A stretch of 64,000 nucleotides of DNA. Source: an uncultured archaeon (lineage in GTDB: Archaea; Asgardarchaeota; Lokiarchaeia; Sigyniarchaeales; SOKP01). Under the pieces are notes generated by a model, which saw only the letters and a program-made list of their open reading frames with translations, was not told where the DNA came from and did not search any database. The translations under genes were made by a program, and so were the position numbers. This document shows, in pieces, positions 37,514 through 58,093 of this stretch (positions within the stretch are counted from its first letter, which is position 1; each line of letters begins with the position of its first letter). Location: assembly GCA_964388035.1 (NCBI GenBank), contig CAYLZE010000005.1, forward strand, positions 3,742 through 67,741, read 5' to 3'.

Positions 37514-38599
37514 TCATGAATAAATGTATTCTTTAACGCTATGATCCTTATCCATGATATCAGCTAAGGCACTATCAAAATGTTTTTGGGTAATCTTTTT
37601 GTTCCTTTCTCTTAAACACTTTATTCCCGCTTCGGTGCACAAAGCTTTAATGTGGGCTCCACTAAATCCATCTGTCACTTTTGCAAGTCGGTTAAAATCC
37701 ACATTGTCTAAATTCATCTTTCTGGTGTGTATTTTTAAAATGCTCAATCGAGCTTCTTCATTAGGTAACCCGAATCGTATTATCCTGTCAAATCGCCCCG
37801 GTCTCAAAATCGCAGGATCAAGCACATCTTCGCGATTAGTAGCCGCTAAAAACATTATACCTTCCGTGTTGGCAAATCCATCCAATTCACTCAACAATTG
37901 CATGAAAGTCCTCTGTACCTCCCGGTCGCCCTTATATACCTCGCTTGTACGCTTTACTGCTATGGCGTCGATCTCATCTATGAAAATTATGGCAGGAATG
38001 TTGATTTTTGCCAGGGTAAAAACTTCTCTGACCATCCTCGAACCCTCCCCGATAAATTTCTGTACTAAATCAGATCCTACTAAATGAATGAATCTCGCAT
38101 TTGTTGAATTTGCAATGGCTTTTGCTAAGAGAGTCTTTCCCGTTCCGGGAGGACCGGATAATAGCGCTCCTGAGGGAGCTTCAATCCCTATCTCTTCAAA
38201 AATCTCAGGATGCAATAAGGGTAATTCTATGACTTCTCGAATGGCCTGTATTTGGTCGTCCAATCCCCCAATATCTTCAAAAGTCACGTTCGGATTCTCC
38301 ATTAATTCCATGGCCGCCACGTGCCCTCGAATGTTTTTTGATAAGATTTCTATAATTTGAAAACTACTTCCATGGAGACTGACCAGATCCCCCGGTGATA
38401 AATTCTCCAAATCGGGTCTGGGCGGTATTAGAATGCGATTACCGGGAGCATGAGAAATAACTACACGCCCATCTTTTAATACCTTCTCAACCGTCCCAAT
38501 GATGAGAGGGTTTTCTTTCATTCGATTTAAGATGGTTCTAAGTTGCTCATTCTCTCGCTCTAATACGCGAATTCTTTTTATATAATCTGATTCAGTCAT
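37514..38599 (-). CDS. pan: Proteasome-activating nucleotidase (AAA+)
   Basis: N-terminal coiled coil and OB fold, GPPGTGKT, FIDEID, LDPAILRPGRFDR, C-terminal HbYX (IYS). Confidence 0.9.
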   Translation of the reverse strand: MTESDYIKRIRVLERENEQLRTILNRMKENPLIIGTVEKVLKDGRVVISHAPGNRILIPPRPDLENLSPGDLVSLHGSSFQIIEILSKNIRGHVAAMELMENPNVTFEDIGGLDDQIQAIREVIELPLLHPEIFEEIGIEAPSGALLSGPPGTGKTLLAKAIANSTNARFIHLVGSDLVQKFIGEGSRMVREVFTLAKINIPAIIFIDEIDAIAVKRTSEVYKGDREVQRTFMQLLSELDGFANTEGIMFLAATNREDVLDPAILRPGRFDRIIRFGLPNEEARLSILKIHTRKMNLDNVDFNRLAKVTDGFSGAHIKALCTEAGIKCLRERNKKITQKHFDSALADIMDKDHSVKEYIYS

Positions 38600-39044: not shown

Positions 39045-40254
39045 ATGGCTGAAGAAGAAAGCTTTTTAAGTGCAAAAGCATTAGTGGTTGACAACGGTAC
39101 AGGAATCTCTAAAAACGGATTTGCTGGTGAGGACCAACCCCGTTCCGTGTTTCCAACTTTAATCGGGTACCCCAAATATGAAAGTATAATGACTGATGTC
39201 GAGCATTATACGAGAGAATACTATATCGGGGAAGAAGCAATGCAACTCAAGGGTGTATTGAAATTAATGTTCCCCGTAGAACACGGAATCATAGAAGATT
39301 GGACTGCCATGGAAAAAATATGGCACTACACCTTTTATACGGATTTGAGAATTGATCCCAGCGAACATCCCGTTCTCTTAACCGAAGCCCCCTTAAATCC
39401 ACGACCAAACAGAGAGAAAATGGCAGAAATCATGTTCGAAACTTTCAACGTGCCCGCGCTTTATGTTGCCATGCAAGCAGTTCTTTCCCTTTACGCGTCT
39501 GGTAGAACCACCGGATGTGTTATTGATATTGGCGACGGAGTGTCTCACGTTGTACCTATTTTTGAAGGTTTTGCGTTGAGCCATGCAATTCAGAGAATTG
39601 ATTTAGCCGGCAGAGATATTACCACTTATCTCCAACGTCTTTTACGACAAAAAGGTCATTCCTTTACGACTTCTGCGGAAAAAGAAATTGTTCGAGATAT
39701 CAAGGAAAAACTCTGCTACGTGGCCATCGATCCTGAAAAAGAAATGATGCTCTCCAAAAAAGTGGCGGGCATGGAAAAGAGCTACATGCTTCCTGACGGT
39801 GAAACCATTAATGTAGGTGTCGAACGATTTTTAGCTCCTGAATGCTTCTTTAATCCTTCCGTCATTGGAAAGGAATTGGAACCATTAGACGATGTCGTCG
39901 TAGGAGCAATTTCCGAGTGCGATGTTGACTTGAGAAGAGATTTATACAGCAACATTGTACTCTCTGGTGGATCTACCATGTTCCCCGGAATAAAGGAACG
40001 TTTGACTAAAGAAATAAAAGAACAGATCCCCGAATCAGTAGATGTAAAAATAATCGCACCTCCCGAAAGAATGTATTCCGTTTGGATCGGCGGCTCAATC
40101 TTGTCGTCTCTTAAAACCTTCCACCGAATGTGGGTCACTAGACGCGAAACCGAAAGAGATCAAAGAATCTCTCGGCGCGAGTACAAAGAAATGGGCCCAC
40201 AAGTAAAGAGAATCGAAAGAGATTCGATTTCGCTTAATTCATCGCTGCTTTTAA
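39045..40254 (+). CDS. Lokiactin (Asgard actin), three exons: 39045-40148, 40182-40206, 40238-40254; spliced product 381 aa
   Basis: Actin motifs throughout ([35 protein letters not shown]). Removing the two inserts yields ...[19 protein letters not shown], aligning with the eukaryotic actin C-terminus. Confidence 0.93.
40149..40181 (+). other. Predicted BHB/BHL mRNA intron 1 of actin (33 nt, in frame)
   Basis: CGCG/CGCG helix, bulge AA|A, intron stem CCGA..GAGAU/AUCUC.UCGG, 3' site AG|U. Confidence 0.8.
40207..40237 (+). other. Predicted BHB-like mRNA intron 2 of actin (31 nt, frameshifting)
   Basis: AAGU/GCUU helix, bulge AA|A, intron stem AAUCGAA/UUCGAUU, 3' site AA|U. Confidence 0.82.
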
Positions 40255-40285
40255 GCACGATGCGGGCCCTTCAAATCGCGAATTA

Positions 40286-40330
40286 ATTTTTTTTTAATTA
40301 TTTAAATTTTTTTTATATTTTTATATTTTA
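40286..40330 (+). terminator. Oligo-T archaeal terminator after actin
   Basis: Several T runs (up to 9 nt) immediately downstream. Confidence 0.55.
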
Positions 40331-40852: not shown

Positions 40853-41157
40853 GAAGAGCAGGGCAAAGAACTTCCCAAGCAGAAGGAAAAGAACTTAAAA
40901 TTCCTGACGAAAGAACAGGGCAAAGAACTTCTCAAGCAGAAGGAGAAAAACTTAAAATTCCTAACGGAAGAGCAGGGCAAAGAACTTCTCAAGCAGAAAA
41001 GGGAGATTTTAAAATTCCTAACGGAAGAGCAGGGCAAAGAACTTCTCAGGCAGAAGAGGGAGATTTTAAAATTCTTGACGGAAGAGCAGGGCAAAGAACT
41101 TCTCAAGCAGAAAAGGGAGATTTTAAAATTCTTGACGGAAGAGCAAGGAAAGGAACC
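40853..41157 (+). repeat. 57-bp coding tandem repeat, 5 full units plus a partial (EEQGKELLKQKREILKFLT)
   Basis: GAAGAGCAGGGCAAAGAACTT (or variant) recurs at 40853, 40910, 40967, 41024, 41081, 41138. Confidence 0.92.
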
Positions 41158-42835
41158 CATCGAGCAGAAAAAGGAAGTAAGAAAAAAAGAGTTTGATTTT
41201 CCTATGAAAGAGCAAGTAGAAAAACGAATGAAAGAGAAAAAAGCATCCATTTTACCAGCTAAAGAAAGCGAGATCAAAAGACAAAACAATTTGGATATTT
41301 TTGAAACGGAAAATAGGAAGATTATACTTAAAGAAAAAGCTCGAGAGCTAGAAAACTCAGTAGGGATTGGCAAAGACTTGAAAGAACGAGATCGGTTAAA
41401 AAGAGAGCAAAATTTAGATGAGCTTTCAAAAGGAAAGATTAATGAAAAAGATATAAAACAAAATAAAAAAGAAGTAATTAAAAACCACAAAGAAGGATAT
41501 TATTATGAAAAAGAGTCGATCCTAAAAGTAAAAGAGAATCCATCTAAGCTTAAACCTAAAGAGCAGATAGAGATTCAACATAATCAAAAAAATACACTTG
41601 AATTTAATACTAAAGAGAAAGGACAGGAAAAGCAAAAGAAGGTGATTAAAGAGCAAGAAAAAGAAGAGACCGAAAATAATGCAATTAAATTATTTGAGGA
41701 TTTACGAAAGGAACTCGGCATTTTAAAGGGAGAGCCTAAAACAATATCTGATCCCAATTTAAGTAAAAGTTTGGGACGGGCTCCCAGCTATGTAATGACG
41801 AAAAAGGCACAAATTAAAGAAAATCCTAAATTTCAACTTTCCTTAAAGGAACTATCAGGATTTCAAGAACACTTGAATTTGAAGTATGGAAAGTTAGCCA
41901 GTCGATGTTCTGAGATAATCGAAAAGTATAAAGTAGCTAATCCAGACTTAAAAGAATATGCTCATGAGCAACATGAGGTTAGTAAGCCCCATTTTTTTTC
42001 TAAAGAAAACATGTTATCTAATACACCAGAAGGGAATAATGCATGCTATTTTTACGGATTTCTCCATGCAGATGGTTATAGAAAAGGTAGGTACGTAATA
42101 GGCAGTAGGATTCATCCGCATGATAAATTAGTTTTAGAAAAAATATGTGACGCGATTGGTATTGATCGAGAGAAAATAAAAGTTAGTGAAAACGTAGCGC
42201 AGTTAGAGTTCAAGTGTAAACCAATGCACGCCGACTTAAAAGAGGTTAAGGAGTATTGCATTCCTAACTTTTTAAGACCAAATAGAAAGAAAGTGCTGCG
42301 TTGGCTTCATGGTTTCTATGATGGAGATGGTACACAAGGTCGGACAAATTTTGGATCAGCACATAAAGAAATCTTGATTGATGTTAAGAAGTATTTCGGA
42401 ATAGAAAATGAAGTTTTAAAAACTCTGGAGAAATATACTTATGTCGATAAAGCTGGAAAAACACATGTTAGAAATGAATATTGGACATTAAGCATTGGTC
42501 CAAAGATATTTAATGAAATGCTGCTTTCTAATCCTTCTGGTGGATTACCTAGAAAATATTCTTTCAAGCAGGAGAAAGATGAATCATATAAAAGGTTAAA
42601 AAGAAATGTTGTTATTTTTGAGAAAAGACTCGGAATGCCACTTCAAGAAGCCCTATATAAATATCGGGTTAGCCAATTTAGGGAAATGTTAGGATCGAGG
42701 TCTACATCATTGCATAGGTTAATTACAGAACGAAAGTTAGAACTACCCCCTAAATCATATTGGAAGGATAAACCTACAATTTGGCCAAACAATGAAGTTT
42801 ATAAAGATTTAAAGGATAAACCATTACATGAATAA
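41075..42835 (+). CDS. Free-standing double-motif LAGLIDADG homing-endonuclease-like protein with low-complexity K/E-rich N-terminus (true start probably upstream, ~40680)
   Basis: YFYGFLHADG and WLHGFYDGDG motifs about 85 aa apart; frame open from 40655. Confidence 0.75.
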   Translation: MTEEQGKELLKQKREILKFLTEEQGKEPIEQKKEVRKKEFDFPMKEQVEKRMKEKKASILPAKESEIKRQNNLDIFETENRKIILKEKARELENSVGIGKDLKERDRLKREQNLDELSKGKINEKDIKQNKKEVIKNHKEGYYYEKESILKVKENPSKLKPKEQIEIQHNQKNTLEFNTKEKGQEKQKKVIKEQEKEETENNAIKLFEDLRKELGILKGEPKTISDPNLSKSLGRAPSYVMTKKAQIKENPKFQLSLKELSGFQEHLNLKYGKLASRCSEIIEKYKVANPDLKEYAHEQHEVSKPHFFSKENMLSNTPEGNNACYFYGFLHADGYRKGRYVIGSRIHPHDKLVLEKICDAIGIDREKIKVSENVAQLEFKCKPMHADLKEVKEYCIPNFLRPNRKKVLRWLHGFYDGDGTQGRTNFGSAHKEILIDVKKYFGIENEVLKTLEKYTYVDKAGKTHVRNEYWTLSIGPKIFNEMLLSNPSGGLPRKYSFKQEKDESYKRLKRNVVIFEKRLGMPLQEALYKYRVSQFREMLGSRSTSLHRLITERKLELPPKSYWKDKPTIWPNNEVYKDLKDKPLHE

Positions 42836-54338: not shown

Positions 54339-55130
54339 TTACAGTCTCTTTTTAAGTGTCTTTTTATGGATGAAGAAGGATAAGAAGAGAAATCCCAGCC
54401 CAAATCCAATCATCACTAGAAAATCAATTAAAAGTCCGTAAATACCAAATGCACTGGAATCACCTAATCCCACGTTAATCATATCAATGAAGTAAGAGAG
54501 AGGTGAAAGGAGAGTCACGGGAGTGATTGTAATCGGCTCAAAGAGAGGACTAATAAAAATGAGAGGAAATTTAATGACAGTAGTTAATATATTCACATAT
54601 CCCGGATTTTCCGTTGGAGGAGTGGAAAGAATGAGACTAAAGCTTGAAAAAGCAAGTGCTCCAATAAACATTCCGATTAGAACAATTATAAAACCTAAAG
54701 AAAAGGAAAGGGAGAAAATAATCATTCCTAAGAACAAGGGAACGAAAGAGAACATGAATCCATAGCTAAATGAACTCCAAACACATCCCAATAGAATAGT
54801 TTTAATTGAGATAGGACAGGTAATTAATCTCTCCAGCGTTTTTCTCATGGTTTCCCAGGGAAAAATTACGGGTCCTATGGAGGTGGAAGTCAAGAACAAG
54901 ACCATGGTTATTAGTCCAGAGATCATGTGGATCGGTTGAACTACTCGTCCGATGACAAAAGCAAAAAATAAGATCACGGGAAAAATTATTCCCTGCATCA
55001 GCACGGGGGGTTTATTGTAATAAATTCTGGTGTAAAGCCCTGAAATATAGAAGGATTTCCTAAATTGCGTCCAGAAATTTTGAATTTTTGAAATGTTTTC
55101 AAACATTGATTCTTCTTTAATCTTTTCCAC
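54339..55130 (-). CDS. ABC-2 type permease (copy 1)
   Basis: Multi-TM; TLERLITCPIS motif. Confidence 0.85.
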   Translation of the reverse strand: MEKIKEESMFENISKIQNFWTQFRKSFYISGLYTRIYYNKPPVLMQGIIFPVILFFAFVIGRVVQPIHMISGLITMVLFLTSTSIGPVIFPWETMRKTLERLITCPISIKTILLGCVWSSFSYGFMFSFVPLFLGMIIFSLSFSLGFIIVLIGMFIGALAFSSFSLILSTPPTENPGYVNILTTVIKFPLIFISPLFEPITITPVTLLSPLSYFIDMINVGLGDSSAFGIYGLLIDFLVMIGFGLGFLFLSFFIHKKTLKKRL

Positions 55131-56106
55131 CTCTTTCTATGATGGTTAAAAAAACTTCCTCTAGTTTTGGAATGTGGTTATTTATTTGTTTTATCTTTAA
55201 CTGGTTTCGAGTTGCAAATTCAACGATATTACACACGGCAATATCAATTTCTTTAACTATAACCTGATAACTATCTTCATCTTTTTGGATTTTTATCACC
55301 GAAGGCATGTTTTTTAATTCTTCTTCGTTAACCCTCCCTTCGAAATTTAGAATAATAGCTTGATATTCTTGGGTTAATCTGCGCAAGTTTGCAGGAGTAT
55401 CCAAGCTAATGATCTTGCCGTGATCGATGATGGCGATTCTATCACAGAGCTCATTGGCAACCTCCATGTCGTGCGTGGTTATAAAAATAGTCATTCCTTC
55501 ACTATTATATTCCTTTATTAATTGCTTTATAATTTTAGCACTTTGAACATCCAAGCCCGAAGTGGGTTCATCCAGAAATAAAATTTTCGGCCCGCTCATT
55601 AAGGCCATGCAAAGCAATAACCTCTGTTTCATCCCTTTTGAGTATTTTTTTGCCGTGAGGTTTTTTTTCTCGAACAATTCAAACTTTTTTAATAATTCTT
55701 CCGCTTTTTTATTCCTCTCTTTCTTTTCCATTCCATACAATGAACCTATGAATGTCAGATTTTGGATTCCCGACAATTCTAAATATACATTTGCCATTTC
55801 GGGAACGTTACCCGTGATTTGCTTTACCTGTATGGGATGTTGCCACATATCATTGCCAAATACATTAATTTTGCCCTTAGTAGGTTCTAAAACCCCCGTC
55901 AACATTCGAATCGTGGTGGTCTTTCCCGCTCCATTCGGACCCAGAAATCCAAATATCTCTCCCGTTTTTACTTCAAAATTAATATCATCCACAGCTCGAA
56001 TTGCCATTTTTGTGCCATCTGAAGGTTTTCCCCACTTCAATCCTTTTCTTTCTCGTTTTGGGGTATCAAAATACTTGCATAGACCGCTTACTTCAATCGC
56101 ATTCAC
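55117..56106 (-). CDS. ABC transporter ATP-binding protein (copy 1)
   Basis: GPNGAGKTT, YSKGMKQR, LDEPT. Confidence 0.92.
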   Translation of the reverse strand: MNAIEVSGLCKYFDTPKRERKGLKWGKPSDGTKMAIRAVDDINFEVKTGEIFGFLGPNGAGKTTTIRMLTGVLEPTKGKINVFGNDMWQHPIQVKQITGNVPEMANVYLELSGIQNLTFIGSLYGMEKKERNKKAEELLKKFELFEKKNLTAKKYSKGMKQRLLLCMALMSGPKILFLDEPTSGLDVQSAKIIKQLIKEYNSEGMTIFITTHDMEVANELCDRIAIIDHGKIISLDTPANLRRLTQEYQAIILNFEGRVNEEELKNMPSVIKIQKDEDSYQVIVKEIDIAVCNIVEFATRNQLKIKQINNHIPKLEEVFLTIIERGGKD

Positions 56107-56325: not shown

Positions 56326-57117
56326 TTATAATCTTCTTTTAATTGTTATTTTATGGATGAAGAAGGATAAGAAAAGGAATCCAAAGCCAAATGCGATTAC
56401 TACCGCAAAATCGATTAATAAACCGAAATTACCAAATGCGCTAACCTCTCCAAATCCCACGTTAATGATATCAATGAAATAAGTTAAGGGCGAAAGTAAA
56501 GTAGCGGGAGTAATCGTTATTGGAGTGAAGAGAGGACTAATAAATATTAGGGGAAATTTAATTAGAACTGTTAAGAGCATGGTATTTCCGGGAGTGTCCG
56601 TTGGAGGAGTAGAGAGAATTAGACTGAAGCTTGAAAAGGCTAATGCACCGATAAACATTCCTATAATAATAATTACGAAACTGGGAGGAAAAGGAATAGA
56701 GAAAAAAATCATTCCTAAGAACAATGGTATAAAAGAGAAAGCAAATCCATAAACAAAAGAACTCCAAACGCATCCCATTAGGATTGTCTTTATCGAGATA
56801 GGACAGGTGATTAATCTCTCCAGCGTTTTTCTTCCGGTTTCCCAGGGGAAAATTACGGGTCCTATGGAGGTGGAAGTCAAGAACAGGACCATGGTTATTA
56901 ATCCAGAAACTATGTGAACTGGTTGAATCACTCTCCCAATAATGAAGGCAAAGAACAACATTATTGGGAATAATATTCCTTGGATCAGCACGGGAGGTTT
57001 ATTATAATAAATTCGAACATAAGTCATTGAAATATAGAACGACCTTTTTAATTGCATCCATAAACCTCGTAATTTTGAAATATTTTCAAACATTGATTCT
57101 TCTTTAATCTTTTCCAC
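56326..57117 (-). CDS. ABC-2 type permease (copy 2)
   Basis: Paralog of copy 1. Confidence 0.85.
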   Translation of the reverse strand: MEKIKEESMFENISKLRGLWMQLKRSFYISMTYVRIYYNKPPVLIQGILFPIMLFFAFIIGRVIQPVHIVSGLITMVLFLTSTSIGPVIFPWETGRKTLERLITCPISIKTILMGCVWSSFVYGFAFSFIPLFLGMIFFSIPFPPSFVIIIIGMFIGALAFSSFSLILSTPPTDTPGNTMLLTVLIKFPLIFISPLFTPITITPATLLSPLTYFIDIINVGFGEVSAFGNFGLLIDFAVVIAFGFGFLFLSFFIHKITIKRRL

Positions 57118-58093
57118 CTCTTTCTATGATGGTTAAAAAAACTTCCTCTAGTTTTGGAATGTGGTTATTTATTTGTTTTATCTTTAACTGGTTTCGAGTT
57201 GCAAATTCAACGATATTACACACGGCAATATCAATTTCTTTAACTATAACCTGATAACTATCTTCATCTTTTTGGATTTTTATCACCGAAGGCATGTTTT
57301 TTAATTCTTCTTCGTTAACCCTCCCTTCGAAATTTAGAATAATAGCTTGATATTCTTGGGTTAATCTGCGCAAGTTTGCAGGAGTATCCAAGCTAATGAT
57401 CTTGCCGTGATCGATGATGGCGATTCTATCACAGAGCTCATTGGCAACCTCCATGTCGTGCGTGGTTATAAAAATAGTCATTCCTTCACTATTATATTCC
57501 TTTATTAATTGCTTTATAATTTTAGCACTTTGAACATCCAAGCCCGAAGTGGGTTCATCCAGAAATAAAATTTTCGGCCCGCTCATTAAGGCCATGCAAA
57601 GCAATAACCTCTGTTTCATCCCTTTTGAGTATTTTTTTGCCGTGAGGTTTTTTTTCTCGAACAATTCAAACTTTTTTAATAATTCTTCCGCTTTTTTATT
57701 CCTCTCTTTCTTTTCCATTCCATACAATGAACCTATGAATGTCAGATTTTGGATTCCCGACAATTCTAAATATACATTTGCCATTTCGGGAACGTTACCC
57801 GTGATTTGCTTTACCTGTATGGGATGTTGCCACATATCATTGCCAAATACATTAATTTTGCCCTTAGTAGGTTCTAAAACCCCCGTCAACATTCGAATCG
57901 TGGTGGTCTTTCCCGCTCCATTCGGACCCAGAAATCCAAATATCTCTCCCGTTTTTACTTCAAAATTAATATCATCCACAGCTCGAATTGCCATTTTTGT
58001 ACCATCTGAAGCTTTTCCCCTCTTCAATCCTTTTCTTTCTCGTTTTGGGGTATCAAAATATTTGCATAAACTGCTTACTTCAATTGCATTCAC
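57104..58093 (-). CDS. ABC transporter ATP-binding protein (copy 2)
   Basis: Protein identical to copy 1 except 3 N-terminal residues. Confidence 0.92.
   Translation of the reverse strand: MNAIEVSSLCKYFDTPKRERKGLKRGKASDGTKMAIRAVDDINFEVKTGEIFGFLGPNGAGKTTTIRMLTGVLEPTKGKINVFGNDMWQHPIQVKQITGNVPEMANVYLELSGIQNLTFIGSLYGMEKKERNKKAEELLKKFELFEKKNLTAKKYSKGMKQRLLLCMALMSGPKILFLDEPTSGLDVQSAKIIKQLIKEYNSEGMTIFITTHDMEVANELCDRIAIIDHGKIISLDTPANLRRLTQEYQAIILNFEGRVNEEELKNMPSVIKIQKDEDSYQVIVKEIDIAVCNIVEFATRNQLKIKQINNHIPKLEEVFLTIIERGGKD

Follow-up and report, generated by a model that had tools for sequence, protein, structure and literature searches.

Results

Two candidate introns interrupt the 3′ end of a lokiactin gene

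We analyzed a 64,000-nucleotide stretch of DNA from an Asgard archaeon (hereafter, the window), in which the open reading frame starting at position 39045 of the forward (+) strand is lokiactin. The encoded protein was 95–99% identical to orthologues across the family, and its assignment to the actin family agreed with PDB sequences; the source genome contained two further actin-like matches. As observed, the tail of the gene was interrupted twice. Exon 1 (39045–40148, codons 1–368) was followed by intron 1 (40149–40181, 33 nt), a 25-nt micro-exon (40182–40206), intron 2 (40207–40237, 31 nt), and a 17-nt exon 3 (40238–40254) with the true stop codon at 40252–40254, all on the + strand. Excision of the two inserts at the bulge-helix-bulge (BHB) positions gave a 381-aa protein with the conserved C-terminus IHRCF. 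The 20-residue C-terminal tail was almost invariant in the lokiactin of relatives, being near-invariant in more than 200 sequences.

The 5′ strand of the intron 1 central helix, CGCG, lies with its bulge AA^A (the caret marks the cut) at 40143–40149, and the 3′ strand occupies 40176–40179 of the 33-nt hairpin, next to the bulge AG^U. The central helix of intron 2 joins 40201–40204 to 40232–40235, with bulges AA^A and AA^U. In both introns, the central helix between the exon and the intron 3′ end had four of four pairs, two 3-nt bulges were present, and a cut after the second bulge base restored the gene. The inner stems had energies of −7.6 and −6.2 kcal/mol. As a reading made earlier from the sequence only had noted, neither intron has the adjacent exon–exon helix of the canonical hBHBh′ motif; an internal loop or junction separates the nearest stable one from the bulge, and both introns are thus relaxed motifs. 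Two paralogues of EndA (PF01974) in the source genome fit the two-subunit enzyme that has been tied to relaxed motifs (PMC4090602). We infer that both inserts are relaxed-BHB introns, which would be cut by a two-subunit tRNA splicing endonuclease and rejoined.

A run of nine T (40287–40295, + strand) lies downstream of the gene. Transcription terminates at oligo-U in archaea, and with this run as the likely terminator, the entire 3′UTR is predicted to lie within the transcript. A terminator scan was empty, and Rfam gave nothing above the gathering threshold; the single match below it was to an unrelated family. Protein searches for intron-retaining lokiactin forms returned intron-less representatives only. 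No record of the read-through protein of the window was found, and a look-up of the form in another intron-2 carrier, the genome G042, returned one near-identical strain.

Other features of the window were also recorded. A 445-nt AT-rich gap separates lokiactin from a proteasome-ATPase-like ORF, recognized by eye (37514–38599), in head-to-head orientation. A 57-nt tandem repeat (40853–41175; 5.7 copies, 89% matches) enters a 586-aa ORF (41075–42835), the later part of which is a LAGLIDADG-type candidate by eye. Successive ORF pairs at 54339–56106 and 56326–58093 have identical lengths (263 and 329 aa) and likely reflect tandem duplication; a pair of 262 and 332 aa follows.

Distribution of the introns among lokiactin alleles

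The comparative set comprised 116 distinct lokiactin 3′ ends, 105 of which were intron-less and came mostly from two genera. Introns were found at site 1 in seven alleles, at site 2 in two lineages (the window and G042), and at a third site in three alleles; only the window allele carried introns at both sites 1 and 2. The BHB register was identical in 11 alleles across the three sites, including six other alleles with intron 1, and stem changes between homologous introns were compensatory. The intron-less sister G040 was nested among intron-1 alleles with a support of 98/99, so that intron loss in G040 is the simplest history. Independent origins of the intron-1 alleles were also considered and were not established; a single origin was not rejected (AU p = 0.073).

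Predicted competing helices in the actin pre-mRNA

Helix A pairs UGUGGGUC in exon 1 (40129–40136) with GGCCCACA in the micro-exon (40194–40201) through eight of eight pairs, one of them G–U. Three further helices use the 3′UTR. Hairpin C spans the stop codon, its UTR strand (40255–40262) pairing with exon 3, GCA (40255–40257) with UGC (40246–40248) and CGAUG (40258–40262) with CAUCG (40240–40244); it had a probability (P) of 0.98 in the models. Helix B (UTR strand 40264–40272) splints the micro-exon, GGGCCC (40264–40269) pairing with GGGCCC (40193–40198) and UUC (40270–40272) with GAA (40188–40190). The outermost pairing, helix D, joins UCGCG (40276–40280) to CGCGA (40176–40180) and is able to invade the intron 1 central helix; it is missing in relatives. 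This UTR fold was the minimum-energy fold of 40120–40295 (z = −2.85), and 3 of 200 shuffles were equally good.

A sequence check located every pairing that the sequence-only reading had named. It had described GGGCCC as shared by two exclusive folds; the models agreed on exclusivity, and the bases common to helices A and B within the contested segment (40193–40201) were GGCCC (40194–40198), five rather than six. Its view that the UTR could splint the flanks of intron 2 fits helices B and C, but CGCGA (40176–40180) does not belong to the exon sequence flanking intron 2; it is the 3′ central-helix strand of intron 1 itself. Base 40201 doubles as the first base of the intron 2 central helix.

Folding was modeled at equilibrium, without ribosomes or enzyme, under 27 settings that varied the 5′ context and the pairing span. 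When the UTR was added, helix B replaced helix A in every context modeled, with P of 0.84–1.0 for helix B and 0–0.15 for helix A. The modeled P of the intron 2 central helix was 0.13–0.44 without the UTR and approximately 0.68 with it. That of the intron 1 central helix in the presence of the UTR ranged from 0.01 to 0.95 by context; in the short 5′ context, it dropped from 0.99 to 0.01–0.08 on adding the UTR, and mutation of UCGCG restored it. Shutting off intron 1 was not a robust outcome of the models; it hinged on context and on helix D, which is not conserved. A fold presenting both intron motifs was only 2.1 kcal/mol above the ensemble.

Association of helices A and B with the introns

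Duplex energies of helix A in six of the seven intron-1 alleles (−14.6 to −17.1 kcal/mol, versus an intron-less median of −8.4) were in the top 4% of the 105 intron-less alleles, and a fuller folding test placed the same six in the top 3–10%. Helix-forming codon sets were likewise present in six of the seven (four with one set, two with another) versus 2 of 90 intron-less alleles. The closest intron-1 relative of the window carries the other codon set, and exon 1 of the first set placed on the micro-exon of the second lost ~7 kcal/mol. The intron-1 allele L074 was without a strong helix A. Four-fold sites were 26–50% identical among intron-1 lineages, near saturation. Well-supported branches offered only two independent contrasts, both in the expected direction, and the sign test was not significant. 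Intron-carrying alleles were slightly richer in GC in the helix A region.

For helix B, a UTR hexamer fully pairing with the micro-exon, with at least five Watson–Crick pairs, was found in both intron-2 lineages and in 0 of the 105 intron-less alleles. The C–G pair of the window is a U–A pair in G042, a compensatory change. Because the hexamer test was defined from the window sequence, G042 is its sole real test. The splint of G042 added just −3.8 kcal/mol, which equals the control median, yet had a P of 1.0 in local folding. Since intron 2 of G042 is homologous to that of the window (22 of 31 positions identical), the two intron-2 alleles probably represent one origin with one compensatory change. 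Judged from these comparisons, helices A and B look selected, each tied to the intron that it encloses. The overlap between them has no conservation evidence, because the window allele alone has both introns.

Hairpin C alone was also considered as evidence and was rejected; stop-spanning hairpins were at the chance level, occurring in 58 of the 105 intron-less alleles versus 55 ± 2.5.

Enclosing helices at other introns

The third-site introns (L079, L080, and L082) are 30 nt long and in frame, follow Tyr-Lys codons, and are enclosed by a long exon–exon helix; these enclosing helices were strong, reached by 0–2% of controls. Further upstream inserts were present in L074, L080, and L082, and apparently also in L079.

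An ab initio intron scan of the source genome was noisy (103 and 135 candidates). From it, 17 other candidate mRNA introns with restored motifs and clean stems were picked by hand, six of which were compared with relatives. Of the 17, 8 had an enclosing helix that ranked within the top 13% of their local controls (binomial p = 0.0007); the set, hand-picked from a noisy scan, may include false introns. Approximately half of the other introns were without an enclosing helix within 25 nt, including the E2 intron that the source genome has in common with G040. Judging from these candidates, enclosure by a helix is favored but not obligatory.

G040 (L175 and L180) has the E2 and dnaG introns in common with the source genome and is without those in nadE, the ferredoxin-oxidoreductase beta subunit, Roadblock, and iolM. 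Inserts of their own were present in other genomes at the same or nearby E2, dnaG, and iolM sites: L177 and L182 (G029), L196 (G042), and L181 (G046). More candidate BHB introns of 28–33 nt from the ab initio scan, in coding genes of the source genome (G000), lie at C1:39351, C35:20908, C65:26310, C125:1712, C149(−):5466, C187:686, C191(−):1515, and C89(−):2833; among these eight, C1 alone was compared with relatives. ARAGORN reported only 22 tRNA genes in the whole source genome, 15 of them intron-bearing and several miscalled, a shortfall suggesting that many multi-intron tRNAs were missed.

Discussion

We consider the best explanation, with a probability of about 0.5, to be that displaced outer helices clamp relaxed BHB introns, that any order of splicing is at most passive, and that the overlap of the helices is not regulatory. 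Each intron is without the usual adjacent exon–exon helix, and a displaced helix would hold the exon ends in place while they are cut and ligated. The clamp of intron 1 would be helix A, formed by exon 1 and the micro-exon and maintained by synonymous codon choice. That of intron 2 would be helices B and C, in which a three-way junction forms as the 3′UTR pairs with the flank on either side; this clamp would be drawn from the UTR because exon 3 is merely 17 nt. Because the two clamps draw on shared micro-exon bases in this allele, helix A would form first in the nascent RNA and be replaced by helix B as the UTR emerges. The most that such a replacement would produce is a passive bias toward splicing intron 1 first; the models make this bias plausible and do not support an obligatory splicing order. 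The overlap would then be a by-product of introns lying 25 nt apart rather than a regulatory device, and the clamps probably help splicing without being strictly required.

A less probable explanation is that the UTR helix is a lineage-specific 3′-end structure for stability or termination, independent of splicing. The introns would be minimal helix-bulge-helix motifs in no need of an outer helix, and their association with the UTR helix would reflect kinship. Archaea with two-subunit EndA are known to process HBh′ and hBH motifs (PMC4090602), and in 24 of the 105 intron-less alleles, the same segment was modeled as paired to one or another part of the UTR. The sequence-only reading had named the same UTR in intron-less alleles as a finding that would count against it, and this was partly what we observed. 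G040 carries a homologous UTR, in which helix B has six of seven pairs with a G–A mismatch at the C–G/U–A position and a C–G pair stands at a position mismatched in the window. Its fold was kept at a P of 0.90, with only 39% of four-fold sites common to G040 and the window. This UTR is possibly a pre-existing 3′-end structure. However, the nesting of G040 between intron-1 alleles makes intron loss the simplest history, and with two other mRNA introns common to the source genome and four absent, the UTR is somewhat better read as a relic of that loss. Among 135 family genomes, G040 was the sole such intron-less case, and no other carried the UTR motif. Furthermore, a splicing-independent 3′-end structure leaves helix A, the third-site helix, and the genome-wide excess of enclosing helices unexplained.

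A more far-reaching reading treats the 3′UTR as a cis-guide that builds a tRNA-type intron substrate in an Asgard actin mRNA and displaces an earlier exon–exon helix, thereby enforcing or tuning the order in which the two introns are removed. As a whole, we regard it as unlikely. What is supported of the original proposal is that the helices look linked to the introns and that the UTR helix displaces helix A in all folding contexts modeled; an obligatory or regulated order does not follow, since the motif of intron 1 can coexist with the UTR fold.

More doubtful still is a true switch, in which intron 1 would be spliced in the fold with helix A, either ahead of UTR synthesis or once ribosomes have unwound the UTR, and the fold with helix B would license intron 2 while UCGCG shuts intron 1, thus ordering or tuning lokiactin output. 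The loss of the intron 1 central helix in the short 5′ context and its rescue by the UCGCG mutation are consistent with this. The unspliced reading frame, moreover, continues through the UTR as far as 40286, so that a ribosome could reset the fold. However, the wide range of intron 1 helix probabilities across contexts, the low cost of the fold presenting both motifs, the lack of conservation of helix D, the occurrence of both introns in a single allele, and the ~68 nt of transcription that separate the two folds all argue against it. A regulated switch is therefore possible but unsupported.

It is very unlikely that the inserts stay unspliced, the gene being damaged or the hairpins bypassed by ribosomes. 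The two further actin-like matches in the genome fit this reading, and no spliced joints were seen in the single RNA run, although that run is of other organisms (7% of words, contigs mostly <90% alike) and is evidence in neither direction. The constant BHB register in 11 alleles at three sites, the 99% conservation of the remainder of the lokiactin protein, and the compensatory stem changes between homologous introns all speak against it. Least credible are functional alternative actin C-termini through intron retention: intron 1 is, as had been stated, 33 nt, stop-free, and in frame when retained (+11 aa), but five of the seven site-1 introns shift the frame, the two in-frame ones match the chance level and encode unrelated peptides, and the native C-terminus is near-invariant, so that the +11-aa form is most likely incidental.

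In multi-intron pre-tRNAs, the introns are removed stepwise. Relaxed HBh′, hBH, and BHL motifs and multi-intron pre-tRNAs (PMC4090602, PMC12397907; for Asgard tRNAs, PMC11291895 and bioRxiv 10.64898/2026.10.13.758758) are similar to lokiactin in having a central 4-bp helix, two 3-nt bulges, an inner stem, a missing outer helix, and several introns per RNA. However, the cloverleaf holds the exons in pre-tRNAs, whereas the coding sequence and 3′UTR would do so in lokiactin. In split and permuted tRNAs, the non-coding leader and trailer similarly pair to build the endonuclease substrate (PMC4090602); those flanks lie on the intron side and are removed by cleavage, whereas the lokiactin UTR lies on the exon side and would be kept in the mature mRNA.

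Among mRNAs, the lokiactin introns would work like the cbf5 pre-mRNA intron of Crenarchaeota (PMC2738675), given as the sole coding-gene example by PMC7714728, as well as like relaxed tRNA introns. The cbf5 case is one cDNA-verified intron at one site, with no UTR-supplied helix or micro-exon found in the portions of text available, whereas lokiactin, known here from its sequence, has two introns, a 25-nt micro-exon, and displaced outer helices. In the literature searched, which mostly excluded subscription journals, we found no publication on introns in lokiactin or other Asgard mRNAs, and no description of multi-intron mRNA splicing, micro-exons, or exon pairing in Asgard archaea. The new element is the proposed displaced clamp, supplied by synonymous codons and the 3′UTR. 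Such a clamp provides a rule by which tRNA-type introns may be maintained within coding sequence, which does not leave the customary exon–exon stem free to evolve, and the gene concerned is the conserved actin of the archaeal group nearest to eukaryotes.
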